A stretch of 64,000 nt of DNA from Marsupella aquatica (taxonomy: Eukaryota; Plantae; Marchantiophyta): contig OZ316895.1 in assembly GCA_973895155.1 (NCBI GenBank), positions 24,557,538-24,621,537 of the forward strand, written 5' to 3'. The translations under genes were made by a program, and so were the position numbers. Each line of letters opens with the position of its first letter. The first letter of the stretch is position 1. The notes under the pieces were generated by a model. It worked only from the letters and a program-made list of their open reading frames with translations. It did no database searches and had not been told where the DNA came from. Below, one piece after another: positions 3,001-31,377 of the stretch.

Positions 3001-6000
3001 TGCTGAACTCTTCCGGAACGCTATAACAATATTCATTTTATGTGTATCAAATCTCCCGGTCGTGTTGGGTCATTATCGTCGTCCTCATTTATAGCATCTT
3101 TTTGGTGATTGTAACGATGCTAAAGCTTTCAGGCTCGTCAAAAAAAAGACTGGTTATATCCATTTGCAGGCAAGGCCTAGGAGGCTGCCCAATGTTCACT
3201 CTTTTCCTTTAGCCTCCTGGGTCGGGTGTAGCTGATGCATAGAGCTATGAAGTGCTTTATGACCGGACTTATTGAAGATAGCACAGTACTTTTTTGGCAG
3301 GTACATTTACATAGGATTTACATTATTTAGTTCGTCCTCACTTCAGTGCCTTTCGAAGAAGTGATGCCCTGAGTCTGTCCTATGTGATAGTTGGTACTCT
3401 GCCGCCCCTGTAAGCCACTTATAAGGTAAGCGCAGGAGACGCTGACTATTATTTGCTCTCCTTACTGAATGAATTGTACGTGTTGCGTATAGAGAGGCTG
3501 TTTTGTAACAAAAAGTTTCGTAGGCCTTAGCAAGTCAGGTGATACATGGACAGTGAGTGTACTGCCTGGATCGATTTCGCAATGCTTGTTTGATAGCAAT
3601 GTTGGCCTTCATCCTAGTGGATACCGTGGACCACTGGAAGGCAAATCTAGACAATCTTACCCTAGTTATGTCAGTGTTGTCGCAGCTTTTCTAACACAAC
3701 TTGATTTGTGAACATGCACAGTACAACAACTATCCCAGTTTGGGAAAAGGAGCGACAAAGCAATTCAAGAAGCTTGGAATGATTGCTGTCACTCTGAACA
3801 TCATAAATTCATAATGGCTCTTTAGCACTGACGTCGGTACATGAGTTCTGGTGCAGATGACAGTAGTAACTGCAGTTCGAAATGAAGACATTCGCTTCAC
3901 TGCAGGAGCAGCAAAGCATATCATTATCTCGAGCATCTTGGGAGAACAATTTATATTCACGAAACCAGAGATTTTGATCAAACCGTGATGTGATTTGCTA
4001 ACAAAGTAGCCCATTGCATGGAAACTTGCGAATTTCAATTGTGAGTAAAGGTATGAGACACCTAGGCATACGGTTGGTCACTTGTTACTTACTCTATGTG
4101 CTCATCAATAAACGGGATCGTATGCAGGCTGAGAGTTTTAAACCACGCCTAGAATTCTAGCAGAACACTTGCAGGGTCCAAATTTCTGAACCCTCCATGG
4201 GCTCCTAGCAGGGGGTTGCATCCCAGCTTGGGCAAAACAAGAGGGCTCAAATCTTACTTATAAAGGGCAAACTCCAAGCTAGAGAGGAGTTTGGGTCTAG
4301 GTGTCTAGAGTGAAGTCTCTAGACCGCAAGTGTCTAGAGTGAAGTCTCTAGACCGTAACTGGATGGTCCACCATGTGGATGAAATTATTCATGGGTATGA
4401 TGTATGTCAAATGATGATTGTGCATGCTCTTTGTCATGGCTCCTATTTACATTTAAACCCGAAGCTCTCATTTTAAAGAACACAGGTTTAGAAATAGACT
4501 TTGAGCTCCACAAAAGGTGCTAGTGTTTCACCTTTTATGGTGAGTACTGAGACATGGAATGAGGCTTTTATAGTGACAGGTCTTTAAAGCTTTTATAGTG
4601 ACAGGTCTGGTTTAAAGTGGTTTAAAGAATGGGTAATCAGGCTCGTATTTCTAAATGCTAGACTCTCAGGATAGTAGCTACTCAAATTGACCACCGTCAA
4701 CACATGAGTGCTATACAACTATATGCTTTCAAATGCATCCGGTAAGACAACATGGTTTGCACGGGGAATCATGACGAAGAGGAAGACTTGACATCATCAT
4801 CAACGTAGCCTAGTGCTTTGAATGTTGGGAGTGTTCCCTATGATGGAAACAGTGATGCACCTTAAGATAGCTGCTTATATGCTCATCATCAGCAAAGGAT
4901 ATCAAACTCATCCTGGCTTCAAGACAGATCGGAAGGGTAGGTTTGTAATATTTTTTGTAATTTTGCGAGATTCATAACCTGACAGGGCAACCACAGCATA
5001 GCTGTTGTCCCCTTGTTACTTACTGACATTATCTGCTCATGAAGTAACTTGTACCACACCTTCAGCATAGCTATTGTCCCAACTTTATCAGCTCATGAAT
5101 GACCATATGGTAGCTGCACTCCAAATGACAGTTTTACCCCACCAAAAACTCATTCAAGCAGGGTACCGTATGTATTGTGCAAGTACACATGGGTAATACG
5201 TGTACTATCTTGATACCTTGTAAGAAAAGACACAACTCACGTTTTAAATCAATGCCACATGGAGATGTTAATAAAGAATCTGTAAATATTCATGGAATAA
5301 GACAGCATAATTCAAGCAAATCCAAAGACAGCATCCACAGAACTATGTCAGAATTCAACCTTGCAAATTCACTATATGGTGGATCCAATAGCCTATAATT
5401 CATGCATGTCAGTGCTACTTTATCCTACATGTTCAATTTGTTCGGCCCGATGGCTATTACCTGCTCTGCCATTCTGATGACTAAGACAAATAATTATGCC
5501 AATTGCAGAGGACTAAACTAGGTCTAATGACCACATCTCCTAGGTGCACACTAGAATGCTTAATCTCAACTAGGATCAGAAATCTAATAGTGTGTGCCTA
5601 AACCCTAAACTTTCGTTGCCAATGTAAGAACCTGATCCTCATAATATAAGTGCATGTGGTTTGGGCAAGAAGAGTCTTTGAAGCCCCTCTGATTTCTTTG
5701 CAAGGAAAAAGAAATAACCACAACAACAAGAAGTCCACTGACAACCATTAAACACAAAGTAGGAAGAGCTCAAAATAAATAGCATTTTCTTCTTTGAAAG
5801 AAGGTGTGCCTATTGTCAGCAAATAATCTAGCATGTAGACTGGTCTTGGCGTCTCCTGGTAGGAGAAATGTCCCCAAATCCACACCACGAATAAACCTCA
5901 GCAGACCAAGTTGAACAGACTCATTGAGTTGTTCAAAGGAATCTATTGAAACCCCAAATATCATGGCTCATAGTAGTCTTTGTGTGAATTGCTTTTTCCG

Positions 6001-6713
6001 GTTCAGTTTCCATGATGCTAAGAAGATAGTGTGAGTACATACCTGAGATTAGGGCAAATGATATGGAGGGGCAGGGAGGGGAGCTACTGTAACGTACACG
6101 TTGCAGACTCTAGTTCCAGCAAGTCTCCAACTTTTAATATACCTTGGCATCTCTGGTCCCAACAAGTCTCACACTTTTAACATCCTTGGCATGCCTACTT
6201 AGTATAATATTCGAGTCCAACAGGGACAGTAGTCTCCTACTTAGTGTAACTAGCCTGATTACCTGGTCCTTGAATGTCAATAAAGACTGAGTTAAGAAAA
6301 ATCCAAAAGAATTTATTATTATTATTTCCGGTTCATTTTTGCTCCTATCCCGGTTTTCTGTATCAATGCATTTTCACTTAAATATCCCTTAACTTAGAGT
6401 CAGTGTCTTGAGGCTTCACTCTAGAATGTAACCATGAAGAGTAAATTTTGAACATGCTTTACTAGTAAAACATTCCTGACCATTCAAACAAGCATGGGCT
6501 ATAGTCCCCTGGGTATGCAGAGTGTAATTTTCAAATCAGACAAGCTTCAGTTGGACAACATTAACTCATGTCACTATTGAGGTTTGTGTCTAAAATTGTA
6601 TAATTATATAAGGGAAGGTCAGACAGTGTTAACTGCATTAACTCACCTCAATATTGAGGTTTATCAAAAATGGCTTGTAGGGGTGGCCCCATTGGTCCAC
6701 AAAATGCTTGTAT

Positions 6714-6736
6714 CAGTCTATTCATTAAAACTGGAA
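6714..6736 (+). repeat. Left terminal inverted repeat
   Basis: CAGTCTATTCATTAAAACTGGAA; the reverse complement of the right end reads CACCCTATTCATTAAAACTGGAA. Confidence 0.85.
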
Positions 6737-6749
6737 AATTATTTGATCT

Positions 6750-6872
6750 TTGGACATTTGGGCACCAAAATATATACTTTTGGGTACAAGAATTGTACAT
6801 TTGGGCAGTGAAAGTTGTATATTTGGGCACAAGATCATGTACATTTGGGGAATCAAGATTGTATATAGGGGA
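6750..6872 (+). repeat. Left subterminal degenerate ~22-bp tandem repeats (TGTACATTTGGGCACAA-like)
   Basis: 5-6 units, e.g. tggacatttgggcaccaaaa, tgtacatttgggcagtgaaa, tgtatatttgggcacaaga, tgtacatttggggaatcaaga. Confidence 0.7.
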
Positions 6873-9410
6873 AAATGAAATATTAATTTGGATTCTAAAG
6901 AAAAACATTTGGGTGATAATAATGTAAAATATGTTGGATAAGAAGTAGAAAATTGATTCAATCTGACTAACTAGTAAGTAAGTAATATAATATAACTAAA
7001 GCTAACTTCAATATGATCTCGACCCTAGCTCAACCTTCTACGTAATAAATGAAAGCATTAATTTATAAACTTGTCAGGATGGTATCTATCCATATTAATT
7101 CAAGTAACTAACTAATTTGTTAGTACATTCTATAGTAAGCAACTCGAGTTGAAACTAAGGTTTACTAGAGGCAGTCACATCCCATCACGGATATGACTTC
7201 TTGTAATATAGTCAGATAGTATTATGTAATTATAATTAAAGCAATTAATATAAAGGTATCCAAGTCCAATTAATACCTCCTGCCCACCTATTCAAACTAG
7301 TCTCCCAAAATATTATAAAAGTTACTTCTAAGATTCACTAGTAACCAACTAGTACGTAAACTAAGACATTCCAAACCAATTGACATACTTAGACTCCCTC
7401 ACTCTGACTACTAGAAAACTTTAATTTGACTTAATGAACAATCCCTTCCATGTAGGTTTTGAGTGTGTTCAAAACATTCTTGGGAATGGTCAAACCTCTA
7501 TCAATTATATTTTCTTCTCTAGAGCGTGACTTGAATCCATACATAGCAGAATTAGCAAATTGCCAACGTTCAGTGGCACTGTCAAACCCAGGATCCATCT
7601 CCCAAGTCTTAGTAGTCTGAAAGCAACGTGAATATCGTACATGATCCAGTGCATCATGTTTACCATGTTTAGGCCTCCACCATTGCACTTGGAACATAGG
7701 AGCATACCTTGTACTAGTAGAAATACTGTTATTGCATTGCAAGTCTCCTGAAGGAACTTCATGGTTTGGGTCCACAACACCCAAAGCTCTCACCAACCAG
7801 AAAAGTTTTTTGCCATTCTTCTTTTCCCATTCATCCTTTGGACGAAGAAATACAAAGTGGCCCTCTTGAATGTCCTGGAGAGGAATCCAACGGGCAAGTT
7901 CTCGCTCGTGTCGAGTGCCAACAAATGGTGCAGTTTGATCCTCCATCTCTTCCAGGTACTCATTCTGAAGCTCCACCATTTCTGGATTCTGTGTACTACT
8001 ACTAGGTTCCCCCAATGGTTCAGAGGTTCCTGTACTATTCACCTTGTAACCAGTTCCGTGGTTGGTTTTTGGCCAAAACTCATATGTCAATGCCAACTGT
8101 ATTTCGGCCTCCCCTTCAATTGTAAGCTCCCCAGATAATACTTGCACCACCATTTCCCAATATTTCACCAAAGGAAACCTCTCACGATATGCTGTAGAGG
8201 TCTCATCCTTACAACTCTTCTTCAAAAACTCGATGTAACGATTAAGGAATGGGATGATTTCTTCAACCTTGCCTCGTACATCCCCGGAGATGGGTTTTGC
8301 AAACGGTTGACCTTCTGGTAAAATGAGAGCATTGGTGTTGGAATCAGTTCTCCAAATGGACCTTCCGGTTGAAGGGTACCAAGGTTGTTTCACATGTGCT
8401 TTGTATTGATATATTGGAACATTATCTCTCATAGAGAAAAGAAATGCCACTGGTTTTGAGTGACCCTCTATGTCTTTTACCTTGAAAGTTTTCAAAAACT
8501 CTTTGTAAGCTGCAACCTCTTGAATCAACCGTGGAACACGATGAATGCTTTCACACTCCCAAACCTCAGCCATCAACCCCAAGAGGGTAGAAACCTCCTT
8601 GTACTTCACTTGGTTGGATACTTTTGAAAACAATGCATCAACATCCTCATGGGTGTGACCAACCATGAGAAATGACATCTGCACTGTTTCAAAGACCCCT
8701 CTACTAACAAGCTCACTGCAAAATGTCATCACGTACTGGTTTTTGTTATCTTTCCCTGAATTATCCATTTGCAAGGTCAGGTGCCTTGGCAATGGTTTGA
8801 AAGAGGTAGCAGCCTTGGGATCAATACCAAACTCGTCATCCACCACATTTGATAACCCAATATCTTGGTCATCTTCAGCTCCTTGAAATCTAGCAATTGA
8901 GACTTTTTTGGGTTCTAAGTACCCTGCAAGAAATGCTTCAAAGTCCAAAAGAGATTGAAAAATTGGCCTCGTTGCAGCCCAATATAACCCTTCAAGGAGG
9001 TCTCCAGATTTGTCCCCCTTGTAATCCTCCAGATCTCTAAGGCACTTGGCCAACGATGTCACTATGAAGTCTACATCTCCTGGCCAAAGCCCAGTGAAAC
9101 TGAAGTGAGCATACACTCCGGGATCCCTTTTGTGGGTCAACATCCCAGTGAGCGCAATGGGGAGAGGTTGACCACTGCCGGACAATGATTTAGGAGTGGG
9201 GACCAACCTAGGGATCCATGTCTTGGCTTGGTCCATCTTGTCATGTATAATGCAAAGATAGTTCTCAGGATCCTTCTTCGCAAGAACCCTGTGAGCATAG
9301 TAAACATATCTCCTAGACATTTGCTCATGAAGATGACGAGCTCTTCTTTCCTCAATCTCTAAACGCTCTTTCTTTCTCTTCTCACGCATCAACTGATCTT
9401 TGAACTCAGT

Positions 9411-9707
9411 CTCGGGGGTTTCACTTCCACAAAAATGGCATATCACGTGCGACGAAGGATAGGGTCATTTTATTGGTTCTAAGGGAAGACTTAAGAATTT
9501 TTGTAGAAGAACAATAGGGTCTTTTAAATTCAATTTTGAGACTTATAAGAACATTAGGGTCTTTTTAATCCATTTTTTAGAATATTCCAAGAATATTCCA
9601 ACTTTATAGGGGTTAAAAAATAAATTTTTTTTCTTACATTTTAGGGGGTTCGAGGCCTAAAAACGTCGCAGGCGATAGGGAGGTCCCCATATAGTGAGAC
9701 CCCTGAG
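9411..9707. mobile_element. 297-bp MITE inserted in the transposase
   Basis: 8-bp TSD AACTCAGT (9403-9410, 9708-9715); 15-bp TIR CTCGGGGGTTTCACT vs CTCAGGGGTCTCACT (13/15); AT-rich interior. Confidence 0.9.
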
Positions 9708-10519
9708 AACTCAGTGCAAAGTGTACACTTTGCAAATGCACTACCCTTGTGAAAGTCAAAATTCATGAAGGACTCACTCCAGAGTTTATACATAGTGTTT
9801 TCACTCACCTTCACGTAGCCATCTAATTCCATCTTGGAGTACACCTCAAAAATCTCTTTCTTCGTGAAACAAGATGGAAGTCTATACTCAACCGTGTCAG
9901 TACCATGAGACCCTCCATAGGGTAGATGCGGCATGGGTTCTCCGTTTTGGGTTAGAATGGACTCCAACAAAGCACGAGCGTGCAAGGTGCTTCCCCGTGT
10001 CTTGTGTGAACCCTTGTTTCCATGGAATCCAACCTTGCAACCTGCTTTGTATTGATTTTTGTAATCATAATACTTGGCAGTGCTGAATCCATGCATTTTA
10101 ATAAATGCACCCTTGCATACACGTCGACCTCTTACAACAAAATATCCTTTTGTCTCCACTTCCTTCTCCCTGCAACCAAAAAGAGTGAAAATGTGACTGG
10201 TTTTGTTGTCGTTTGACATCCCATGGTATTCCCTCCTTATCGCCTGTAGGTCTTCTCTCGGCATGTTGAGGCAACACTTCAACTTACAACAACCTTCTCT
10301 TTGGATGGAATCAATTTCCTCCTCTGTGATTTTCAGAATTGCCCTCGACTCCAGGTGCTTCTTCCTTTTTTCATCAGGGTTCCCCTTCGTTCTCTTGATG
10401 AAATTATAAGGCCGTTTTGAAAACTCAGTGTGACCATTCATATCTACCTCTAGACAATCTCGACCATCAATAATTGGCTCGGGAGAAACCTCTCCAATGA
10501 GATCCAGAAGAAAAATCCC

Positions 10520-11440
10520 CCTTGATATCAGCACAAGTGAACGGATGGCCCACCTAACAAGACCGGGCACTCCGGGGGAGATATTCGGGAAAAATTGAGG
10601 GTCAATCACGCCTGTGACAACAACCCCAACGTGATCTGGCCCAAGAACCTCATCATCAATGGCACCGGACTCGAAAGGAACTGTGATGATGCCAAGCCCG
10701 ACCTTGGTCCGATTATCATCAACATACAATTCCACTTCCTCCGCCATCCAGTTCGAATGCAAACTATAATCTTTGAAATTATCATTTCCAAAAACATCCC
10801 GTGCGGACGGCTCATCTAGTAAATCATGGGAAGAACTCCTTTGATGAACATTCCTTAAATTCCAGATTACAAAATTGTCCAATCCTTCCTGAACGGTATC
10901 GGCTCCAGCGTGCGGAAAGGGTAACCTCTCCATTCCTTGAACAACTTCACATATCTTCACACTAATCCTATCAGGGCCAAGTCTTTCATTGTGACAAGTG
11001 TCATCGGGATTCATCTTGAATACAAATCCTCGACACACAATCTGATTTCCAATCGAGAGCTCCACTTCATCGCCATCTGTAATTGAGTCTCCCAAACTTC
11101 CCACCGCAGATTTGTCAGGTAAGCAATTGGGAAATGTATCATTTGTAGAACATGTAGCATCCACTTGTGTCATCGCTGGAGTTGACTGTGACCTCAAATA
11201 TGTGAAAGAGGCATCCCAAATAATGCAGGAGTCTACAGCATCAAAAAGTGTCCTGATCGGTGGCAACGGGAATGGAATTTCTCGAGATCCATCATAGCAC
11301 CTCTCAATAAGAACTCCTATACGATTAATACCCAAATCAACGTTACGCACTGAGTCACCGGGGTCAACCTTAAGGACTGTTCCAGAGGCAACTTCAACTC
11401 CGTCAAGTAAGAGGGAAACCTCGTCTCCTCGAAAGAATAT
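10520..11440 (-). other. Three tandem Tnp1/En-Spm-like (Transposase_23-type) domains at the transposase N-terminus
   Basis: Three units with the pattern V(A/C/G)xG…LG…(I/V)xV…P…(I/V)xW: VASGTVLKVDPGDSVRNVDLG…IPFPLPPIRTLFDAVDSCIIWD; VCRGFVFKMNPDDTCHNERLG…LPFPHAGADTVQEGLDNFVIWN; VGLGIITVP…VLGPDHVGVVV…GLVRWA. Confidence 0.65.
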
Positions 11441-11542
11441 CCCCATTTGGAAAAGATGTTCCAAACAGGAAGCTGTTGTACCTCGAGATGATCTCAAGGT
11501 AAAGTGACTAGCAAAAACAAACCAACTGAACTAGCAGTAACA

Positions 11543-11777
11543 GATTAAGAAGTCTTTAGCTCGAGACAATCTCGAGGTAAAGAAAGGACCACAAAAATCA
11601 CGAGATATAGATTAACAAAGTCTTCAGCTCGAGACGATCTTGAGGTAAGTAATGGACCACAAAAACCACGAGATATAGATTAACAAAGTCTTCAGCTCGA
11701 GACGATCTTGAGGTAAAGAATGGACCACAAAAACCATGAGATATAGATTAACAAAGTCTTCAGCTTGAGACAATCCA
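11543..11777 (+). repeat. 68-bp tandem repeat (~3.5 units), each carrying the element palindrome, upstream of the transposase
   Basis: Unit gattaacaaagtcttcagctcgagacgatcttgaggtaaagaatggaccacaaaaaccacgagatata; palindromes at 11559, 11627, 11695 and 11763 (partial). Confidence 0.9.
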
Positions 11778-13476
11778 CATGAAGAGGGAATTCTATACTT
11801 CCAACGATCAATAATCCACCCTAGAAGAAGAACTATGAAGTGCATAGAAACAACAGCTCATAATAACTCCTCAGAGAAGCATGAACTCACGCAAGAGAAG
11901 GAAAGATACTTAAATACTTGTGGATTTAAAGGAGCTAGAAACAAAAACAGACAATTCCCAAGAAGATACCTAAAGCTTGAGACGATCTCGAGCCACAAAT
12001 GACACTCTAATTGAAAAATATGTTGTTATGATTGAGGAGCTCTAGATGATCTAGAGGTAAAAGTTTGACATTGAAATACATAAAGTAGGCTTATAGAAGA
12101 CTAATGAGAAATAGCTTAAAAAAAAGAGAAAAGGTTCACAAATGGATTCTGAGTGACAATGTTTTAAGCATAAATGGTTTGGTATTCTAAAAGGTATGGG
12201 TTCAATTATTTTAGACCAACTTCATGGCTTCAAATGAGAATGTCTCCAAAACCAAATAAACAACTGAGAGAGAAAGGACTTCGAGAAAAAATCTAGAGCC
12301 AGAGAACAGGGAGCGAGAGGCAGGGGCAGGAAGAGGGATAAGAGAGAGAATGAGGGGAGCAGGAAGCGAGCAATGAAACAATATCTGAAGAATGACCCGA
12401 TGGAGAGGAAAACGAGCAATATATAAAATCCTGCCTGACCAGACGGCTCTGTCAAACCAATGGCAAGGATGAACTAGCGGCAGGGTGAAGTACAGACCGC
12501 AATAATGATGGTACGTGTGACAGCACCGTCATCATGACTCAACTCAAGATTCACTCCCACGCATGGGCGCGTGGCATCCTGCACGTGGCCGGGCATCCGT
12601 CGTCGGGCACCCCAGCCTGACTCAGGGCCGACCGAGCGGCTTATAGTCCACATTCGCAACGTCGCCACCCTCATTTGCACATTTGCCTCCCTGCCTACCT
12701 CCCCTCCGCGCCTCACTCGCCTCTTGCTTGCTGCCTCTAGATATTTTGTCACTTTTGCCTCTAGATCGTCATTTTTTCCTCGAGACTTGTTTAGGGTCAA
12801 GATCCCCTTTGAGCCTCGAGATATTTTATAGCCGTTTGGATTGAGATTTTCTTGTGAGCCTCGAGATAATATTTTCTTATATCACCCAGATCTAGTATCC
12901 ACTATCCAGTAGCCATGTCGACCGTTGTAGATTTCTCCAAGGACAACTTCGCCGAGTACGACGCATCAACTGTAGCGATGGAGCTTCAGACCCTTCTAGA
13001 TTCATCATAGAACATCCACCGCACTATCAAACGTAATATATTATCTTTTCTCATTGTTAGATGGAGGTTTGGCTCGAGATCATCTCGAGCTTCAAATCAT
13101 ACTTGGTTTTTGATCCACTTGAGGGTCGAGATCATCTCGAGCCGATTGATATTTTCTGCATTACTTTGCTTCAAGAGGTGGCTTCGAAGTGAACAAGTTT
13201 ATCGTTTGTAACTGAGATTAGGCTCGAGATCGTCTCGAGCCTAATATCCACAAAGTTAAGAGGTTTCTGTCATTTTCATATTGATGTATCTGTCAGATTG
13301 CTGTATCTGTCATGCTGTATCTGTCATGCTGTATCTGTCAAATACTAACAGCATATCCAAAAGGGATTATGGAAAAGGCAGATTTAGATTCCTATTGAAT
13401 ATGTTGTTCGTATTTGACTTATGTTTTGTTATTTCCGATGGAAAACAATATCCTTCGGAAACCAACATCATATCGA

Positions 13477-14110
13477 AAGTCGTCCAAGCTTGCTTCTGAA
13501 AATGACTTCTGTACTCTCCAACTTGTTCTGATCATGGAAATCATCCCGAGTTAGAGAGTTTTTGAAGCCTTTGCCAGAGGTGAACTTGGACAACTTTTGA
13601 GTATGTTGTTCGTATTCGATCGACATTCTCATATTTGAGAATCAATGTCTTCAGTGAAGAAACATGATAATGCAAAGATTTAGTTAACGGTGAACGAATG
13701 CCAATTGTGAGTCTCTGTATTCTAACTTTTAGAGACTTGGGTCGAGATGATCTCGACCCAAGTATTAAAATATCCAATTCATCAATAGTGTACTAACTTT
13801 TTGCCTTGTCAGATTTTTTGCATATGGAAGACCACGTCTATCGACCACAAAAGTCGACCAAGCTTGCTTCTGTCAACGACTTCTGTACTCTCCAACTCGT
13901 TCTGATCATGGAAATCATCCCGAGTTAGAGAGTTTCTGAAGCCGGTGTTAGACATAAGCTTGATCAACTTTTGAGTATGATGTTCGTATTCAATGGAGAT
14001 TCTCATAATTGAGAATCGATGTTTTCCTACGACGAAATATGATAATGCAAAGATTTAGATACCGTTGACTGTTTAGCCACGATTGACTCTTCCTGTATTC
14101 TATTTCTAAA
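13477..14110 (+). repeat. ~250-bp imperfect direct duplication inside the first cargo-gene intron
   Basis: aagtcgtccaagcttgcttctg…gataatgcaaagatttag at ~13477-13730 and ~13851-14110; each copy is followed by a palindrome (13740, 14130). Confidence 0.85.
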
Positions 14111-15344
14111 GTATTGTTCACGAATTTAGGGTCGAGATCATCTCGAGCTTCCATTGTATTCCATGCTTGCCATCTGTAGATTGCGAAATACCCTCCAACT
14201 CGTTTCCATTGATGATTGGGGTTCGAAAAGGTGATTGGTAGTTGGGTTTATGATATTTTAGAATCAATTCCTCCCCCCAAATACATCTGGCCATGAAACA
14301 ACGGTTTTGTACTTATTTGAGTTCAACTATGTTAATGGGTGAGGGAAGCTCGAGATCGTCTCGAGCCTCTTACGGGATTTCTCATTTCTGTGATTCTGAC
14401 AATTGGTCTATTTTTCATTTTTTCCAGGTGCAAAATTGGGATCGCCCAATTTGATTGTTGAAGATGAACATGCCCTTGAGGTTTTGTGCCCTGGACAAAC
14501 TGATATAGGATTCTGTTGGGCCATTGAGCTAGCTGAAATTGAGGAGATGGAGGGGTCAGTTATTTGCTTGAAGACGAGGTCTCCATCTACCAAACCTCTA
14601 GTTTGCAGCTTACTTGGGCCTGTTGTTTCCATTGTCACAAGTAATGGTAAGGACATGGTCTTGACGGTGGAGAACCATGAGACTGGGAAATGGGCTCTCA
14701 TTAGGCTTCACTCCAAGAACTACTCGTGCAATCTTAATATTGAACGTGCTGCTAGGAAACAACTGAGCGTGATACCAATGGGATTCTTCCCCGATGGATT
14801 TACTGCCAGTAATTTGTTGGAAGAGTCCAAAATGACTGGGGCAGATATAATTTTTGGATTCTTGTATTGCCGGAAATACGGTTTTGATCATGACAATGAA
14901 TTCACGACTCCTTTCACTTGGAAGGTTTTGAGAATAATGTCAGATTCCAAGGTGGGAGAGTTTCAATCCATTTCCCCTGATTTTGTTTTTGGAGCTGGTG
15001 AATTTGACGAGGAAGGGTGTAAGAAGTGGGTGTTGTCTCATCGGAGACAAACAGGTAAAGGAAAATCAGGAGCTTCAGGAGATAAGATGTCAGGCTCGGA
15101 CAAGAAGGAGGTAAAGGTGGCGCAAAAGAGGAAAAGGGTTGAGAAACCTGAAAGCGCTTCGAAGAAGGCTCCGCCTAAGAAAAAATCTGCGCCTGTAAAG
15201 GTAGATCTCATTCTGGCATCTTCTTCGGGTGTGATTGCACATACCGATGATGATGGCACTCCAGGAGATGCTCCGGGTGAAAAGAGCGTTAAAGAAGGAG
15301 CCGAAGTTCTTAAGGAGATTGAGGAGTATTACACATTTGGCATG

Positions 15345-15790
15345 AATGAAACTTTTGACATTCCTGTCACTAGTATAGATTCACCTTCTGCAGTTTTGGT
15401 ATATAGGATGTTCAATAAGGACCATGCCATGGAGATCGCAAAATCCATGGTTAGAAACCCTGGAATGGTACCAGCTGTGGCGGATTTAATTCCGTATTCA
15501 AGAGAGAGTTCGCAGTTGCTCCATTATGATAATACTCCTGAGGATCGAAAGGAGTTCGAGTGGGGTGTTAAGAATAAGAAGGTGCAATTCCTTGCAATTA
15601 GTGGACAACACTCGGCCAAGGCAGCAGTTTGGATCATTGGTTGGTCTAAGAGCGATGCAAAGTTGAAGGAGGTCACCAAGAGTCTTCAGCTTTGAAAGTC
15701 ACAAATTCTTTTGGACAAAACTCCAAGAACAATACTTGCTCAACACTCACAAAGGGCAAATGCAGTTAACAAGACAATGGAGTATGAGTC
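15345..15790 (+). other. ParB/Sulfiredoxin-like domain in the cargo protein
   Basis: FDIPVTSI…YRMFNKDHAMEIAKSMVRNPG…FLAISGQHSAKAA…(stop)KSQILL…HSQRANAVN follows the ParB-N pattern (IPxxxI, R, LAxSI..G, IDGxHR, terminal EN/AN); the GxHR Arg is replaced by Ser. Confidence 0.6.
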
Positions 15791-16759
15791 CTATTTTCTT
15801 GATACTATGGTCCATGCCCGTCGACAGTTTGACGTGTGTGGCCATCCGGAGAGACTCGTGATTGGGTCCAATAGACTAACGGATCATCAAAAGTTCCAGG
15901 TATATTCGAACTCAAATCCACTTCTAGCTCGAGATTGTTTCGAGCCTCAAGGTCAAGTTTTTGTATTCAAGTCTTTTTCAATAAATTCCAACATAGTTTC
16001 TTCATTCTACCTCTAGATCGTCTCAAGCCTCAGATTTTCGTTGTTATCTTTGGATCAGGATTTCATGGCTTTGGCCAAAATAACGACTGGAAAATCTGAC
16101 CTGAAGAATATTTTTTGGTTGTTGTTTTCGGAAGAGAAACTGTTCCAGTCTTGGAGACTAATATGCATCGATTGGGTCAAGGGGCTTCTTCCTGATGGAC
16201 TTGGTGAGTTAGGTTCAAAAATGAACGGGAAAAGCCGGACAACAAAAATGATTACACCGGCATTGTTTAGATGCTTTGAAGGGGACCTCAGTAGTGAGGA
16301 CATTCTAAAGGTGTTCACCGCCGTTCATCATCAAAAGGTTCTATTGAAGAAAGACCCGGCGAACAAATCTGATGTTCAATCAATGAGTGACATGGCCCAT
16401 ACTTTTAAAGTCATGACAAAGCTGAGGGCAAAAATCGTGGAGTACTACGTTTTAAAGTATCCCGAAAATTTTTCCGATTCACTTACTTGGTTTGAGCTAA
16501 CTCAATTTTTGCCAGCATTTTTAGATCGCGGCGAATTGCCGAAACTGAGACAGCTCGCTGGGGAGGTTTGGCTGTCCAATCTCCTAAAGAGAAATAGGGC
16601 CAAAGAACCATTGCCGCAAAGTCTCATTGTGAAGCTTGAGCAGATATAGTGCAAGACGTTTGGTGGGACTCCTGCTATGGTGGATACTCCTTATCACAGT
16701 TTTTTAAGCGACAATCTTATGAGGACGATGAAGCCGGAATCAGTTGGACCCTTTCATAA

Positions 16760-17480
16760 TACGTGCGCACTTGCCGTTGTCGACTTTGGTCGTATTCGAC
16801 AACGTCAGTGGACAGATGCTGAGATTTTTGTCTTGTTGGAATATTGTCTGGAGATGTCTAACTCAACCGAGTTTTTGGCAATCATTTTTGTCCGTCAGGG
16901 CCCTTTAATAGGCCAGATTCAGAGTGCCTTCGAGAAGTTCCGTCGTGAGAAGAAAGTCCACACTAAGCTCGAGTACGATAGTTACTACCATGAAGATGTA
17001 CCCAAGGAGGAAGGTGACTTTCTCATAGGAGCACGGGACACTATCATTTTTGGGGGAGTTTGTTGTGATGAAGAGCCTGACTGGTCCCAAATTTTCTTCG
17101 ACGATTTTTATGCGTTCTGGAATTACAATGCTAAGTACGACAAAGACTTCACCATCTTACCGATGAGGTCTTCCGCTGGGAAAAGCAAGGATCAACAAAG
17201 AGGGAAAGAGAAGCAGGATGAAGTTGGAGTTGATGTCAAAGTATTGGAGAAGATGGCCCCGTCTTATGAGATGGTCGGTCGGAGAGGGGGCTTTGTAAAC
17301 CCCAGAGCTAAACCTATACGAATGACAAAGCGTCTTGTTGATTATTTCTCCAGCACTGGTCACACAGTGCTTGACTTCTTCTTCGGAGGGCAGACCCTCA
17401 AAGCTTGCGTCATTGTTGGTCAGGATTGTTTTGTTTATTCTGACACAGCTCAAGAGATGGAATTCATCGAAGCTTATGCG
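16760..17480 (+). other. Degenerate beta-class N6-adenine/N4-cytosine DNA methyltransferase-like domain
   Basis: VNPRAKPIRMTKRLVDYFSSTGHTVLDFFFGGQTLKACVIVGQDCF resembles the N6_N4_Mtase C-terminus (HPxxKPxxLxxRLI..S..GD.VLDPFxGSGTT..A....R.F); the motif IV position probably reads LAVVDFG (no DPPY/SPPY). Confidence 0.65.
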
Positions 17481-18603
17481 CGGCTCCTCCATGACAACCG
17501 CCATGTTTTATATATTCCACCCCGAGAGTCGTTGCCATCTGAGGCCATTGAAGTCGGTCCCCTTACTGTTTTGGAAGAAGTGGCCTCGGATCCAGCTCCA
17601 GTTGAGGCGAGTGTTTCCGAGGAAGTTTTTGCGGAGAATTTGGAGCATCGCAAAACAGAGGGCCCCAAAATCCCAAGCTACATGGAAGAGGAGGGTGAAA
17701 TATTGCCCGAATTTAATGAGGTAAATGATGGTCGAGATGATCTCGAGCTTCCTGGTGTACCTTCTTCGGGGGACGTGTTTCATGCAGAGGATGCACAACG
17801 TGAGCAGCAGTCTTTGAACTTGGATGTTGGTTGGGAAACCACCTTGCAGGATGCTGCCAGCCACCCAATTCCTAGCCCACCTTGACTCGATGAGATCCTT
17901 TCAACCAAGAAAGCTTGTTGCTCCCCTGCCATAACTCCCCCTCAGGACGAGGCAGGTGCATCGTCTTCTCCCTTGGACCAAATGTTTTGCGCTTCAGAGG
18001 ATAAGCTTGTTTTCACAGATTCTTCTACTGGAAGCCCCATAATTCTCCCTTTTGTTAGGAAACCTGGTGTTGAAATCGGTAGAACTGACTACAAATCTCT
18101 CAAAGCTAATGCTACTCATTATGTGTGGATTCATGGTCCATCAAAAGGCGAACAAGTCAGTGTAGATCAGGCTGAGAAGATTATGCGTTCCAGGGATTAT
18201 AGGAAAAATAAGTTCAAATTAGTGCCAGTCTGGTCTGAGCCAGCTCTTGTTGAAATGCTTCCTGGAGGGATCAATTTGGACATCCAAAACCAATTAGGAG
18301 ATAACCTTCTAGATGAATTTGGGTCTTTTGGCAAGTGACGTTGAAACCCAAGCTACCTTCAGTCCTCAAATTCAGCCATCTAAATTATTATGTCTACCTT
18401 CACAGTGATAGGCGGGCCATTACCAGTTGTGGATTGCATCGACAATAGTCTCCAAAGCTTTCCACATTCTTTGACATCTGCCCTTCAGCCAATTGCAGGT
18501 TTGTCACGCACTGTTGTTCATTTACTTTTCATGCTCGAGATCATCTCTAGCCTACCATTATTTTGTCTCACACAATTTTAATATAGGTGTCTCTTGTTTG
18601 CAG

Positions 18604-19661
18604 GACCCTTGCCTCCACTTCACGGTCCAATCAGACGGAAGCTATTGATTCTTGACCTCAACAAAATGTGTTGGGATTCTGTTAGAACTCCGAGTCCCGG
18701 ACCGCGTCGAAGTGCCACAAGTGTCAAGGGTGTTCATTGGGGGAGAAGTGGAGGATTTAACTTTATGTATGTTGAGCGTCCCCATCTTCACGAGTTCTTA
18801 ATCGCAACTTTTGCTATATTTGATGTTGCCATCTGGACTTGTGCGAGAAAGCCCAGGGCAAATGAAATGATTCATTTGATCTTCACTCAAGAAGAGCAGG
18901 AGCAATTCAAGTTTATTCTAACGCAAGAAGATACATTTGACACTGGAATCCAGAGGCCTGATGTCACCGAAGGAAAGGCAAATATTCTTTTGAAGGATTT
19001 GAGGGTTGTTTGGAAACGTTATGGTTTATTATACGATGAGACTAATACACTCCTCCTTAATGACTCTCCAATGAAGGCGTTTGCAAATCCAGAGAATTGT
19101 GGGTTGTTCCCTTCTTCATTTTTGCATCACTCCACGGATGATACTTTCTTTCCCGAAATACTGTGGCCTCTGCTGAGGAAATTGTATCATGCCTTCAATC
19201 TTCAACACTACCTATTTATCAATCAACCAAAGTGGTCTATGATCAATGTTTTATCGGACAGGGATCAACATGCTGCCATTTATGCGCTGTTGTCGGAGAG
19301 GTGGGGTAGTATGGTATGGGTTCCCACTGTTATCCATACAGTCTTGGATGTTACAGCGGACGAAATTCCCTGGGATATCAAGAATGAAGTGCAACAATTG
19401 CCACCAATTGAGGAATTGACGGAGGAGGCGATCGAGGACCTTATAAGGATATTAATTGGGGATCAGTATACAGGACCCTATAGAGACAATCATCTGGCAT
19501 TTGTTTTGGAAGTTCTGAGGACTAGAGACCTCACGACTAAGTTTTGGAATAGAAATCCTCTGGATTTCTGCAATCGTGATATGAAATATGACCCGTCAGG
19601 GTCTAGATTTACTTGCTCAAATGAATTCTGCGGGGAGGAGGATCATGAGATTTGGGTCTAG
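18604..19661 (+). CDS. FCP1/NIF-type HAD phosphatase-like domain (probably the last exon of the cargo gene)
   Basis: RRKLLILDLNKMC…YVERPHLHEFL…FDVAIWTCA…LLKDLRVVW…YDETNTLLLNDSPMKAFANP; acceptor ttgtttgcag at 18603. Confidence 0.8.
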
Positions 19662-20244
19662 ATGATCTCGACCCTACACCAAACACTGATTATTAGTTAG
19701 GGGTATATGTTTGCAGGAAAGCGTGAAGCTTACCGTAACATCCATTTGGGTCTAAATGTTCTCGACCCTCTACTGAAGAAATAGGATTTTACTTATAGAT
19801 ATATACTCATAAAAAGGTTAGTCTATTCGGGTCTTAACCCTATACAGAAAGAATAGTAAGTTAAAGATATACATTCAACAACGGGTCAGAATTATGTGAA
19901 CCCTCCATTTTGGTCGAGATGGTCACCATATAGATTTTTATAGATATGCATTCAACAACCGGTCAGAACCATCTGGACCCTAAATAGGGGTCAACGTGAT
20001 CTCGACCCTGTAAAATAGGTTTTATAATTTTATAATACATCACTTGTTTTCCTGGAGTTCCGTGTTCATGACCCTTGGTTAGAGTGTGTCATTTTTAATG
20101 TTATCATTTGAATTTATTGTATTGTCAAACTAATATTGTCTTATTCTATATTTTTATCTGTTTATATTTTAATTAATAATATTTATAATTAATAACTTAG
20201 TTATTTAATAATTTGAGCATCACAATTGTAAATTTACACTTTAA

Positions 20245-20371
20245 AAAGTGTACATTTGGCCACAAAAATGTATGATTTTGGGGACAAAGTTATAGAATTT
20301 TGGGGTGTAAAATAATAGATTTAAACATCAACTTTTGGACTAGAGAAATTCCAGTTTTAATGAATAGGGTG
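20245..20371. repeat. Right subterminal repeats and right TIR
   Basis: tgtacatttggccacaaaaatgtatgattttggggacaaag…; TIR 20349-20371. Confidence 0.75.
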
Positions 20372-21578
20372 ATTTGTTGGGTACTAACCAAGATTCTGCG
20401 TTACTCTTGGAAGGAGGAATAAAATGTATGAATCTTAGTTTATTATGTATCACGCTAAAGAACAGAACGGGCCAAACAGGGAGAGAGGATCTCTATAGGG
20501 GAGAAAATAATGGCAAGTAATTGAAGAAATGCGGAAAGAAATGTCAAGGACCATTGAAACTTTTGAGAGTTTGGTGGCTTTTGAACTGTTCAAGTTGTGG
20601 CACATCTGTTTCTGCCTAATCTATTTTGGGCATTTTGGAAGCTGTCAGTTTGGCGAGCCCTCAACTTCTGTTGCTGAAAGAAGCACAAATCAAAACAGTA
20701 GTGTGAAATCATCAAACATATGGGTATTCACGAGGTTTAGCGAGAGCTTTCGAGGTCATTTGAATGTTTGTTCTCTGCATGTATATGCTCGGGGGATTTT
20801 GGAGCCAGTCAGCAATTTATATGTAAGCTGAGGTGGGCTTTACAAGATGGTGGGGGCCATTAAGTCTCTCTCCATACAGAGCAAAGCTGATGGCCATTTC
20901 CTTCCACAAAAGTTAAAATGCCTGAGCCTAAATGTGTCTGGTTTGGAAGTAATCAATGCAATTCCCTGAAAATAAGCGGCCGTTTGCTCCAAGTTTTTAG
21001 ACCACCTCAAGAGGAAGTCTAAGTTTTTGACAAAAAAGCTTGCACACCACACCTCAGCAAAAAAAGGGACCCACAAGGGGCCCACTGACAGATGACTAGG
21101 TTTGGTAATGATTTTGGTTCATTGTGCCCCCAAGTTCATGTAAAGTGAAGTGTGGTCAGTTCCCACATATGAATGACTAGGATTGCATCTTTCACTTAGA
21201 AAAAAAGGAATTGCTGCCCCCAAGTTCTTGTAAAGCCACCCTGAGACATCTCTGCAAGCTGAGATGAAGAACAGACAACTTTCAAACGCGGAAAAAGAGG
21301 AGTACAATCATGGCTGTAATGATTGTGCAGTTTTTTCTTCGACCTGTAATGATTGTATTGTTCCTGGTCCAGTATTCAATCCTTTCTATCCAATTGGGGA
21401 AGGCATACAATTGGGGAGTTGCAGGGATAATGATGTAAACGTAGGTGAGGCGGCAAAGAGTCTCAACTGAGGCATGTCAGGTGAGAGATCGAGAGATATG
21501 TAGAGCCAGGACTTGGGTTGTTCACTAAAAGAGGCAAACATGGTGAAGGCAGGATCGGAAAGGCAGTAAGCTCTGAAC

Positions 21579-24652: not shown

Positions 24653-25105
24653 TCAGTCATCGTCGCTCCACATCCTGGACTTTCTGAAAATCCTTCTACA
24701 CTCCAAGAGAATGTCCGCAGCAGCAGCGGTGGTCACCACCACGGTCACCCTCTCCTTGAGTACGTTGCATTCCACGGACTTCACGCCCTTCATCTCAAAC
24801 AGAGCAACCTTGATTGAATCCACACATTCTCCGCAGCAAATTGGAACCTTCATCACGACCTTTGTCTCCTTCTTGTCCTTCGCGTCGCCGCCTTCTTTCT
24901 TCGGTTGGGGCGCAATGTAATCCGGATAATAGTAGGGGTAGTAAGGAATGCTTGCGAGTATAGTGTCGTCCTTCTCTGCGGCCTTCTTACCGCCGCCCGA
25001 AGACGAGCTCTTGTCATCGCCCCCTTTCTTGTTGTCATTCTTCTCAGGCTTCAACACCCACACGGGCTCCGAGCCCCCGTAGAACAAATCCTGCATGGAC
25101 ATCAT
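24653..25105 (-). CDS. HMA-domain protein (HPP-type metallochaperone-like), paralogue 1, 150 aa
   Basis: VVMKVPICCGECVDSIKVALFEMKGVKSVECN…RVTVV; ends MWSDDD; start context gcaagATG shared with paralogues 2 and 3; no CaaX. Confidence 0.88.
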   Translation of the reverse strand: MMSMQDLFYGGSEPVWVLKPEKNDNKKGGDDKSSSSGGGKKAAEKDDTILASIPYYPYYYPDYIAPQPKKEGGDAKDKKETKVVMKVPICCGECVDSIKVALFEMKGVKSVECNVLKERVTVVVTTAAAADILLECRRIFRKSRMWSDDD

Positions 25106-28100
25106 CTTGCCGAGCTGAATTGATCGAGCTAGCGCAACCTCACTATGTACCGTCCCAGAATGCGACTCCCAGAACAATCTTCCCCACAGGCCGCTGCGCA
25201 CCACAGATTAAACACCTTCGATTTACTGGAACTCCACTCGTCGTCACAAATGACGGCGACTAATGCACAATGTGAACGGGACGGGATTTCAAAGCTCCAG
25301 AAAAGCAGGAGAGCAACAAGCAAATTGAGAGAAGGAGAGAGAGAGAGAAAGGATGTGAAGTGGAAAGTTATCTGATAGAGTGGAAGAGAAGAATGCGAAT
25401 GTCTGGCTTAGGGAGCGAAGGAGCCGTTCTTATAGTACGATGAGTCAGCAGCTGCAACTGAGGATTGGCACCCAGTTAACTTCACGTAGAAGCTTCCCTC
25501 CTAGATGATCCAAATCGCACAAGCCCACCACAACGTCCAGTACGGAGGGGGGGAGGTAGTCAGGAAGGAGCCGCACATTGCTGATTGCTGGAGACTCGGA
25601 ACCAAGGAGTCTGGTACAATCCACAACTGTAGATATTCCGAAGCGGAAGGGGGACAGGGCGACGAGTAGGAGACTACGAGACAGCAGTCAAACTGTGGCA
25701 CTGTGCATCAGCGATACAGCCGCGTCGAAAAGATGAGCTGAGACCAGTTCCTTGCAGCGCACGCGGAAAGGGAACCGGGAAAACTGTACAGTTGTGAGAA
25801 TTCAGCGGCGCTTCGCAGTTGGATTGTGGGGATGACGACGAGAGGGACGACGGACGACTTGAGTTGACCTACAGGCGACCTGACCGATCAACGACTGTAA
25901 TCAGTCACGTTCTCTGTAATGATGTGTGGGTTCGAAGGTGCATGAATAACGAGATAAAGGTGACGTGTTTCCGTTCGAGAGAAAAATAAATGATATGATT
26001 GCCCTGAGCTGGAGCCCCTTCCATACTTACCTCAACCTTCCAGCAACGCATACAGTACAGAGATTTGTGGCACCGGCCAATAGATTTGTGTCAGCTTTCA
26101 GTTTCAAGGCAAAGTGTGCCTTGGAAGTTGTTCTCTAATATTAAACGGGAGGTGGTCGATTATGTAGTACCTTCTCTAAAGGAGCTCTACTAAATCTTCC
26201 TTGAATTTGGGATTGTGTGCGGACAAAAATCTCAGAATATTCTAAGATGGCACAATCCAATATGGTAGGACACTTAGTTTTCAAGATCTTCTTTGGAAGA
26301 CTTTCACAATCATGGTTTTCGTTGCCTAGTTGTGGCCAATAGCTAAGGAGTGCGAGTACTAGGCAAGATTGGGGTTAGTGCCTGTTTTCGTAGGACGGGC
26401 AACATGCAACTGAGCCATTATGCATCATAGATTGAGTTGGCAACCCATTTAGGGAAGTTGATTGTTAAGGCCACAGTATGATTGTAACAATTGTCAAAAG
26501 CTATCGATCAAAGACGTAGAGATGGTGGCTGGATCTTCAGGTGAGCTGAAATAGCATGTGGTGTCATCTAGATAGGCTTTAATTTGAGCAAATAGGATGG
26601 TGTGAGTTGCACGACGGAGATATTGAATGGGTGTTTTGATACTACTTGCAACAGATTTATTAGCACACAAGGGGAAATCCCTGGGAAAAAATATGGCGAA
26701 GATTGAGTGAATGTCAACAACCAGACAAAGACAGTTTCAAGAAGTTTTGCTTTACTTTGTCAATGGAGGATTGAAACCTGGGGATGAAATAAGCCCACAT
26801 GTAAGGGTTTCCAAGCAGTGATCAAGCAAAAGAAATCTTACCATACAAGCTCTAACTAAAGCCTACTCTTCAGGGCCTAGGGAAACATCCGGACTCCCTA
26901 CTCAAGCAAGAGCAAGTTTTGACAAATCTCCAAGTAGAATGACATGATATGAAGACCAGTGAGACTTGTGGCATGAAGGAAAATAGTAAAGAAAGTTTAT
27001 TATTCTTTGGTAGTAAGAGTAGCTTTTAGAAAATGATGCTCCCATGCATGGACCACAACGTTGGTCTTTTGAAACCCCATGGATCACGTTTCCCAAAATT
27101 TGAGCTCAATTGGAATAACTTCATGTTCATAAACTATTTTTAGTTTTGACTATGCGCTAGAGGAGTATGTAAGCTACATTTTCATCAAAGTGACTGAATT
27201 TTTGGCCATTTTGGTTGAGTTTATTCATCATGGAATGAGGAGGGGTAATTCTATTAGATTAATTTTCATTGTGTGAATATGAAATATTAGGGCTTGTGTT
27301 TTTGTATGTCTCCTCCTTCTGTAGTTGCCTTGCCTGTGAGAAACTAAACTTTGTTTTTAGACTGATAATCATCAAGTTATATATGATGACCATCTCTTCG
27401 AAGTTGACAGGATGGACCACCAGGTCGGACACAATGCTCCTGTGGACATCTCTTGTGGTGCCCACTGGCTAAAGCTATGAAACTACGGGCACAGCAGTGA
27501 ACCAAATGAAAAAACACCCTAACAGACCATACTCAGCCAACCAAAACATTTTTCTGGAGGTTGGAAATGTGCAAATTCTAAGAGACTTTGACGTGCTTTG
27601 TATCAACACCAAAGGCACTCTACATGTCAAGCACTCACCCCCATGCCTGGTAGCAATAAGAAAATCCAAAAAAGAAAAAAGAAACGACAGAGCAGGAGAG
27701 AACATTATTGTGGACGTGAAGCTCCTTATGAATCATTGAACAAGTGCTCCAAATGACAGAGCCGGAGGGACAAGTGAGTCCTCCTCAAGGTAATTACCTC
27801 ATTATACGCTGAAGAAATTACATAGCAGAGTAGCCGTGGCAGGATTGCACAGCTTACCGTTTTGAAGAACATTTACGCAGTCTATCCTGCTGCAGCAAAT
27901 TATGTCGGCCAGAGTTGAATGGCGATGCCCTGTTTCGATTCTTGAATAGTCAGTGATGAAAGACAGCTGTGTTCCGAAAGAGACACATGTGCCATGCTCT
28001 AGAAGCTCCCACTAGAGCTGGTGGGCCTGCTCCAAGTCGGAGGAAAGTCGTTTGCCGAGAAGTGAATGTTGAATCTGTGGATTCTCGGGAGAAGAAGGAC

Positions 28101-30783: not shown

Positions 30784-31377
30784 CTTGCTGTGGCGAAATT
30801 GACTCAGCTGAAGAAAATGTATGTCACAAGACCTTTTCGACTTTTGCAATAGAGGCAAAGCAGCGAATTCGTTTCTAAGAACGGCACTGGAGAACGTGTT
30901 GAAAGAAAGTTTGCCATCTCATATATACTGTACAGGTATGCAAGGCAGACGCGATGAAAACAATCGATGCATGGGCAACAATCTTCCTGATTACTCTGTT
31001 CAGGTTGTCTTCCTGGATACGATGATGGAAGCTCTTCCTTGTCATCAGTTGGCTTGGAGGGAAAGGAGAATATTAGCGCCTAGTTTTGTTCGCTTGTGTA
31101 TATTTAGTATGTAACACACACAGACACAGAGATGCACATCACAGCTGTTCTGACCCAGACGGCTAGTCGAACAAGAACTTGGAACCACAACGCGGGAACA
31201 AGCAAACTTCTTGACCACTCGGCTCACAGGTGCCTTGTCGGACACGATTATGGAAGCTCATCCTCGTCACTCAATTGGCTTCGAGGGAACGAGTGTGTTC
31301 AGTGCTCGCTTGTCGATATTGTGACACCCACCGACACAGTGGTGCACATCATTGCTCTCCTCACCAAGGTGGCTTGC

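Follow-up and report, generated by a model that had tools for sequence, protein, structure and literature searches.

Transposon proteins known to recognise the element that encodes them and to protect it are few, VANC and TnpA being the cases in point. In 2025, accessory genes bearing a ParB domain were proposed in algae as a new class of self-recognising proteins, with neither a site sequence nor a test in the available parts of the texts, which cite Iyer 2011 for green-algal cases. In the case of Ectocarpus, the available part of the paper on Sola1-1_Ec32 describes a gene opposite the transposase for a 1,104-residue ParB plus N4C/N6A methyltransferase protein, whose suggested role is to bind the element that carries it and to modify it (PMC12477816). 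In the case of the red alga Bostrychia, Plavaka (EnSpm) elements with PAG2/PAG3 hold a ParB-2-oxoglutarate (2OG) oxygenase gene beside tandem inverted-repeat arrays (bioRxiv 10.1101/2025.02.11.637652). Both papers propose a binding role and, the Ectocarpus one as far as its text is available, report no test of it (PMC12477816; bioRxiv 10.1101/2025.02.11.637652). Here we analyse a 64,000-nucleotide stretch of the liverwort Marsupella aquatica (contig OZ316895.1, positions 24,557,538 to 24,621,537; in the following 'the window', with coordinates counted from its first letter). In it, a whole 13,662-bp DNA transposon (6712-20373) contains 21 copies of a palindrome and a cargo gene with a predicted ParB/Srx-type fold.

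The combination of ParB and sites has been published before, for algal transposons. Like Sola1-1_Ec32 in its available description, the locus is a large DNA transposon with a 4-bp target site duplication (TSD) and an accessory gene, on the other strand from the transposase, that carries ParB-like and methyltransferase domains; this likeness is one of description and domain content. Unlike Sola1-1_Ec32 with its 282-bp inverted ends, the element here is 13.7 kb long, has 25-bp ends and an extra NIF phosphatase gene, and resides in a land plant. Its methylase domain lacks the xPPY motif and it holds a defined dispersed palindrome, whereas the available Ectocarpus text mentions no palindromic sites. 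With Bostrychia Plavaka it shares a transposon-borne ParB-like protein, inverted repeats as proposed binding sites and an N6-adenine methylase-like part, which in Plavaka is a separate gene. In Plavaka, however, the fusion partner of ParB is the 2OG oxygenase and the arrays lie next to PAG3; in the present element the partner is the methylase-like domain, the sites are scattered through 13 kb, with some in each of the three introns, and the transposase belongs to the DUF7869 type. The Ectocarpus and Bostrychia elements may hold similar palindromic sites. Our literature search, outside which most subscription journals lay, returned no land-plant case of a ParB-bearing transposon and only the two algal papers as relevant. 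New here are the land-plant lineage, the defined dispersed site in all three introns, the degenerate motifs in both enzyme folds and the added phosphatase.

The palindrome core was scanned for as TCGAGA-NNN-TCTCGA, and copies were classed as perfect, with at most one and with at most two mismatches. The window contains 8 perfect cores (starting at 11561, 13074, 13126, 13224, 13742, 14132, 14350 and 17732), 16 at up to one mismatch and 21 at up to two. All 21 fall within 7008-19928, inside the single transposon, and the other ~50 kb of the window hold none at this threshold. The chance expectation is a mean of 0.09 for up to one mismatch (maximum 1 in 100 shuffles of the window) and of 0.58 for up to two (maximum 2 in 200 Markov copies of the element). 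An earlier, sequence-only reading had claimed about 20 copies in the element and no full copy outside its terminal inverted repeats (TIRs), and both statements stood. Its list of copies needed revision: there are indeed 21 sites, with only 8 perfect, while 19751 and 19991, counted there as full, have two and three mismatches, 11765 is a half-site, and the positions given sat 1-2 bases ahead of the core.

From the 42 half-sites, a symmetric matrix was derived that gave the consensus T(T/G)(A/T)(A/G)G(C/G)-TCGAGA(T/C)-(G/C centre), in which the flank T(T/G)(A/T)(A/G)G(C/G) lengthens the palindrome to ~27 bp overall. The 23 top-scoring places of this matrix are all within the element. The spacer, previously read as a free nnn, turned out to be constrained: of the 42 half-sites, 31 have T and 10 have C as the outer spacer base, and the centre is G or C in 18 of the 21 sites. 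Regarding the core mismatches, 14 of 18 hit the CpG position; in kind, however, only six are deamination-type transitions and another six are G>T changes producing a TCTAGA half-site, so that the earlier claim of variants being mostly CpG decay holds only by half. The palindromes contain TCGA and mostly GATC as well.

Flank likeness of at least 26 of 60 bases occurs only among the three copies of a tandem repeat described below, and most palindromes are therefore not plain duplicates of each other. Of 19 sites, 10 have complementary bases directly beside the centre, without excess over the 11.8 of shuffled pairs, which favours two half-sites being read in double-stranded DNA. Altogether, being private to the element in the window, dispersed, non-coding and set in unrelated flanks, the palindromes are supported as behaving like double-stranded protein-binding sites.

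By the gene models used here, coding sequence takes up 66% of the element, and yet 19 of the 21 palindromes lie in non-coding DNA (p=1.5e-7); when the tandem trio is collapsed, 17 of 19 do (p=1.1e-6). One site is at the left end, six lie between the two divergent genes, six in the first cargo intron, two and one in short introns, and three at the right end. They are densest between the divergent genes and in the first cargo intron, and are present in all three introns. The left non-coding end holds a copy with two mismatches (7008-7022). Upstream of the transposase, six copies span 11483-12055 (starts 11483, 11561, 11629, 11697, 11977 and 12041), three of them within a 68-bp tandem repeat of 3.5 units (11542-11775). 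Several of these upstream sites end in GAG-GTAAA/GTAAG, splice-donor-like on the plus strand, which may only mirror the half-site consensus. Directly upstream of the cargo ATG, a plus-strand cluster (12736-12875) consists of six half-sites in the same orientation (12736, 12760, 12780, 12797, 12816 and 12861).

The long first cargo intron contains six perfect palindromes (13074-14364; starts 13074, 13126, 13224, 13742, 14132 and 14350). This intron also shows a 177-bp duplication (87%; 13476-13652 and 13850-14026) without a palindrome, and high-depth relatives are devoid of that intron part. Two copies (15929-16026; starts 15929 and 16012) lie in the 159-bp intron that separates the ParB domain from the helical domain, and one (18535-18549) in the 105-bp intron of the phosphatase gene; the earlier claim that the short introns at 15900-16058 and 18499-18603 hold copies is thereby confirmed, both introns having GT..AG ends in frame. 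At the right non-coding end (19657-20005), copies start at 19657, overlapping the phosphatase stop codon, at 19751 and at 19914, and a copy with three mismatches is at 19991. The nearest cores are ~300 and ~370 bp inward of the element termini. The expectation of about one mid-exon copy did not hold: besides the perfect palindrome in the acidic-tail exon of the cargo gene (17732-17746, reading DGRDDLEL), a second exonic copy with one mismatch is found in a transposase exon (10449-10463, reading DGRDCLEV).

The element carries a DUF7869 transposase gene, a spliced gene for a protein with ParB-fold, helical and amino-methyltransferase-like domains, here called cargo, and a gene for an NIF/FCP1-like phosphatase. 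The cargo gene lies on the plus strand. Its probable first exon (12915-13031, ATG at 12915, one in-frame stop) is suggested by GT/AG ends and matching phase and is followed by the 1,396-bp first intron (13032-14427). The next exon (14428-15899, stop at 15693) encodes an N-terminal domain, a basic linker and the ParB/Srx-fold domain with YR and ISGQHS motifs. The last one (16059-18338, stops at 16647 and 17883) encodes the helical domain, a beta-class amino-methyltransferase-like domain and the acidic tail. A single fused cargo-phosphatase protein was considered and dropped, as the cargo frame ends at 18338, like the homolog P0080, and the ATG at 18390 opens the phosphatase in phase.

The ParB/Srx N-terminal fold was found in two AlphaFold models, that of the window's domain (pLDDT 89.5) and that of a 384-residue Riccia homolog. 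In the case of the window's domain, all 28 of the 28 Foldseek matches listed above rank 40 belong to the ParB/Noc/KorB/Srx family (best E 3.1e-3), and with VIA the six best matches fall in the same ParB/Srx superfamily (Z 7.7-5.4). The top structural matches are Noc, ParB, PadC, KorB, SerK, SbnI and sulfiredoxin. The Riccia model gives the identical structural ranking and adds four helices where ParB has its DNA-binding domain; against pNOB8 ParB (5k5d), 183 of its residues align, past the N-terminal domain (Z 7.4, root mean square deviation 5.3). The helical domain of the cargo protein occupies this same place, and a helix-turn-helix in it is only suggested by the model.

Regarding the methylase-like domain, its C-terminal half matches M.RsrI (E 1.2e-8 and 1.6e-7) and, weakly, phage DNA methylases, and these matches run through the S-adenosylmethionine (SAM)-binding end of the domain. 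The Pfam match to PF01555 (E 2e-4) is below the curated cut-off. The C-terminal SAM motifs (HP..K, DxFxG) are present, the SAM-binding-like D-[FIL]-F-[SF]-G-G occurring in 11 of 11 family sequences. The catalytic [DNS]PP[YFW] (xPPY) occurs in 0 of these 11: at its expected place, which was set by the usual motif order rather than by alignment, ten have D-L-T/A/I or D-F-G/T and one has a deletion. By contrast, Marchantia DN4MT1 has TSPPY according to the available part of its description (bioRxiv 10.1101/2021.02.12.428880). An active methylase is accordingly less likely from these motifs.

Those homologs of the cargo protein that have a species name belong to two liverworts. A 151-residue query returned 69 proteins at E<=0.001 among cluster representatives, of which at least one, P0031, looks spurious. 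Among 20 proteins looked up (18 query matches and two methylase-region matches), species names were available for Riccia sorocarpa (6) and Calypogeia fissa (1), and eight further Riccia proteins were found in addition. The Atlas holds two eukaryote clusters of 62 and 55 members, with Streptophyta the commonest. Many homolog fragments stop at F-[QEK]-V, the same point as the window's cargo exon, and the intron at 15900 therefore looks old. The window's second cargo exon is homologous to the Riccia family over 448 columns (hhalign 99.6%, E 3e-24); this link needed profiles, the pairwise BLAST match to Riccia P0082 being not significant (E 0.23). A search for longer homologs with the methylase region found none.

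The architecture recalls bacterial systems. In the available part of one source, KorB of plasmid RK2 is described with a 13-bp palindrome of G/C centre and 12 dispersed sites, and VirB as an anti-silencer of the ParB family (PMC13768133). Like KorB/OB, ParB/parS, Noc and VirB, the cargo protein would have a ParB/Srx N-terminal fold followed by a helical domain, with a G/C-centred palindrome repeated across the element, and its proposed use for gene regulation resembles that of KorB and VirB, including anti-silencing in the case of VirB. Unlike in these systems, GQHS stands in place of GERRxR, no ParA was seen among the ORFs, a methylase-like fold replaces the C-terminal dimerisation domain, and the setting is eukaryotic chromatin. 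The domain order of the cargo protein is the same as in phage ParB_N + N6_N4_Mtase fusions of ParB-terminase loci, which, in the accessible part of their description, are unlike it predicted to be active DNA methylases (PMC4738411). The nearest named Atlas look-alikes of the Riccia homolog are likewise ParB_N + N6_N4_Mtase clusters (score 0.78), which serves as a lead only; for the ParB part of the cargo protein, no phage match was obtained by tblastn or in viral contigs.

Among transposons, the part of one paper available describes for VANC21 a bound motif that lies in introns as well as in other non-coding DNA (PMC5735166). The pairs VANC/VANDAL and TnpA/Spm, in the texts accessible, are similar to the present case in that a transposon-encoded factor goes with family-specific motifs that are enriched in non-coding DNA and partly multiplied by tandem repeats; unlike here, their motifs are 9-10 bp long and non-palindromic and anti-silencing has been shown, whereas in the present element it would be an inference. 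No kinship of VANC or TnpA to the cargo protein is expected. By analogy, the palindrome density around the two promoters and in the introns may be said to recall VANC.

We slightly favour reading the palindromes as operators to which the ParB-fold protein encoded by the element would bind in dimeric form, thereby regulating the element itself. The cargo protein is suggested as the binder by the symmetry of the sites, their restriction to the element, their scatter along it and the ParB-type architecture. In this model, the helical domain after the ParB fold would read each ~13-bp half-site, like the central domain of KorB and ParB. Because its methylase-like domain is without xPPY family-wide, the cargo protein would bind or act as a scaffold and not itself write N6-methyladenine (6mA) or N4-methylcytosine (4mC). 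Occupancy along the whole element may then keep it open to transcription within a genome that carries CpG methylation, in the way that VANC acts for VANDAL and VirB against H-NS. Given binding, we put anti-silencing as the purpose at about half; autorepression that caps transposition is the main alternative purpose and fits as well.

The sequence-only reading had spoken of parS-like loading sites for an element-encoded protein. What stands of this is that a protein of ParB/Srx-type predicted fold is indeed encoded. What is weakened is the canonical loading chemistry: the ParB phosphate-binding motif is GERRxR / GxxRxxA in the part of the source available (PMC13768133), and no ParA-like gene was found among the element's open reading frames (ORFs) of at least 120 aa (8 ORF pieces, Pfam scan). 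At the corresponding ParB position, the family motif is G-Q-H-S-x-x-A, with S in 35 and R in 0 of 38 aligned sequences, and no GQHR-type motif occurs among all the proteins collected. Since GQHS replaces GERRxR, loading dependent on cytidine triphosphate (CTP) is doubtful, and with the catalytic and phosphate-binding motifs both missing, an active methylase and a CTP clamp are each less likely.

Besides this GQHS motif, several further results weigh against the cargo protein as operator-binding ParB. Foldseek gave no match at E<=0.001 for the domain, and all Z values are <8, which the tool rates as a possibly common arrangement. In the Riccia model, the helical domain alone retrieves only mixed helical bundles (Z<=5.3). 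The ParB families of Pfam (0 of 38 members) and NCBIfam gave no match, the only Pfam hit on the 38 members being DndB (E 0.04, in two), and a profile search of Protein Data Bank sequences recovered no ParB. As to whether protein and palindrome travel together, no DNA of distant family members was obtained from metagenomes, genomes (5 stretches confirmed, 0 loci) or viral contigs. Between copies, the cores had no non-central differences where 2.1 were expected, which with 40 of 78 differences listed is not significant (P=0.12), and in one relative the exonic site 17732 has a broken right half (loose end 17714). The observed/expected CpG ratio, computed on gene borders slightly earlier than the present ones, is 0.66 in the non-coding parts minus the sites and 0.57 elsewhere in the window; because these values are close, there is no clear footprint of methylation protection. 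Lastly, in the outer flanks 77 of 152 pairs are complementary compared with 62.8 by chance (p=0.01; range p=0.01-0.05), a slight self-complementarity that leaves a small residue for hairpin explanations.

Core conservation between copies is no more than suggestive from the contigs compared. Over 12900-14500, two of the 40 differences listed, out of 78 in total, fall in the six cores, both at the central base. Diverged relatives omit most of the first cargo intron (joint 13090-14418) and still align through the site at 13074, and one of them retains the palindrome behind a different, shorter spacer (loose end 13172). Depth peaks over the sites 13074-13224 were not taken as copy numbers.

The palindromes could instead serve the transposase, whose three small N-terminal domains, for example, might bind them for synapsis or for activation of the promoters of its element, the cargo protein being incidental. 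The cluster at 11483-12041 directly upstream of the transposase gene would suit this, and in the available part of a recent text, clusters of cognate motifs are described as bound by transposases and TnpA, with activation of the elements concerned (bioRxiv 10.64898/2026.08.24.746577). However, the same text places TnpA binding at the termini, on a non-palindromic motif, whereas here the palindromes avoid the termini, separate 22-bp subterminal repeats exist at both ends, and neither Pfam nor the Atlas gave a match for the N-terminal region of the transposase; we regard this role as unlikely. Alternatively, the palindromes may be by-products or structural signals arising from tandem duplication, template switching, DNA cruciforms or intron RNA hairpins, with no protein involved. 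Three copies do stem from the 68-bp tandem repeat, two sites have perfect 13-14-bp arms folding at -13 to -14 kcal/mol, and flank complementarity is, as said, mildly above that of shuffled pairs. A hairpin, however, requires no fixed sequence, while most copies share a common core in unrelated flanks; in addition, the inner pair is often broken (T-G, C-A), G..G mismatches flank three perfect cores and two copies persist in exons. We consider a purely structural origin rather unlikely.

Two further explanations retain the idea of recognition and change the reader or the outcome. If the methylase-like domain were active via a non-standard motif, the sites could be guided 6mA/4mC targets that mark self or block host CpG methylation. 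The similarity of its C-terminal half to M.RsrI and phage DNA methylases and the conserved D-[FIL]-F-[SF]-G-G speak for this, as does the same role proposed for the Ectocarpus protein in the available part of its description (PMC12477816). With [DNS]PP[YFW] missing throughout the 11 family sequences, we judge guided methylation improbable. The motif could also be recognised by a host transcription or chromatin factor, which the element exploits by having accumulated it. Transposons often carry host factor sites; against this, no copy with up to two mismatches occurs in 50 kb of flanking host DNA with several genes and other repeats, a degenerate palindrome of ~27 bp is long for a plant factor, and the element encodes its own candidate reader. 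Recognition by a host factor is thus very improbable in our view.

The operator reading has a bolder version, in which the ParB-pseudomethylase of a land-plant family, derived from phage, would act on chromatin as a DNA clamp or scaffold loaded at sites. The protein would load at its private palindromes, spread along the 13 kb of the element by means of no nucleotide or of one that is not the canonical CTP, and shield it from CpG silencing, while the co-carried FCP1-like phosphatase would act on RNA polymerase II. We consider this whole chain unlikely.

The element is bounded by the TSD TTGT (6708-6711 and 20374-20377) and by 25-bp TIRs matching at 23 of 25 positions (left 6712-6736, plus strand; right 20349-20373, minus strand). 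A 2-bp AT duplication with CAG/CAC ends at 6714/20371 also fits and is weaker than the 4-bp TSD. The 22-bp subterminal tandem repeats of the TGTACATTTGGG type (6751-6878, plus strand, and 20227-20289) are unrelated to the palindrome and are candidate transposase sites. In contigs of four public runs (2 studies, 2 organisms), the element is covered by thousands of variant pieces, and low-depth contigs identical to its flanks stop at 6739 and start at 20345; it is therefore a multi-copy family with these ends. The 4-bp TSD and the TIRs agree with Sola-1, as judged from this one insertion, and the element is likely of Sola type rather than CACTA. Beyond the TSD, this assignment depends on the QMDN and GHTHED motifs of the transposase, which we take to be Sola-like. 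A reading as CACTA, in which the TSD would measure 2 bp and the transposase gene would contain an intron, was considered and dropped, as the 4-bp TSD fits better and the supposed intron is an insertion with a 9-bp duplication. The gap from QMDN to GHTHED is only ~40 residues, without the C(2)C of the CACTA/EnSpm CMCT definition in the available part of PMC12730594, if these motifs hold the catalytic acidic residues.

The transposase gene (7431-11446, minus strand; DUF7869 core, PF25273 E=8.7e-42) contains HDKMD, QMDN and GHTHEDVD motifs. At its N-terminus (11446-10450, minus strand), three similar small domains are seen by eye, which are presumably Tnp1-like; a BLAST self-match of this region was not obtained. 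The gene is broken by a 296-bp insertion (9411-9706) with short inverted ends, a 9-bp TSD GAACTCAGT and no palindrome, probably a Mutator-like miniature inverted-repeat transposable element. Contigs of two runs join across it (joint 9401-9707). The summed contig depth of this insertion is very high in all four runs, and a relative with a 72% match is at 46416-46533. With this insertion and four in-frame stops in the cargo gene, the copy in the window is dead. The third gene (18390-19661, plus strand; exons 18390-18498 and 18604-19661) encodes the NIF/FCP1-like HAD phosphatase (PF03031 E=1.8e-15).

Other features of the window were also recorded. A Ty3-type retrotransposon with reverse transcriptase (RT) and integrase (34812-39505) lies in a CpG-poor stretch, and upstream of its RT it encodes a domain of the C5 cytosine methyltransferase type (35685-37082, PF00145 E 1.1e-6); retrotransposons of other eukaryotes have likewise captured C5 methyltransferases. 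A dispersed cluster consists of four related genes with a heavy-metal-associated (HMA) domain (24653-25207, 30292-30918, 43234-43785 and 48448-48963), two of the four having been scanned (E 9e-6 and 2e-3). A different small TCTAGA-based inverted repeat of the TCTAGAGTGAAGTCTCTAGA type occurs outside the element (4304-4352, 6398-6425 and 46068-46087) and may belong to another repeat family. Two tandem arrays, of 127 bp x3 (42725-43107) and 78 bp x3-4 (53235-53563), both have CCTGAA-T-rich words.

In conclusion, the element provides a candidate site of ~27 bp together with the positions of its 21 copies, and the named members of its protein family come from liverworts, near a genetic model plant; with these available, binding and anti-silencing are directly testable. 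The family-wide loss of both enzyme motifs shifts the expected mechanism from a protein that writes a bacterial-type methyl mark to one that binds and shields. If true, a protein-plus-site pair that keeps plant DNA active would be a tool against transgene silencing. The clamp reading, if true, would amount to an anti-silencing device of the parS/ParB type in the plant nucleus, testable in Marchantia.

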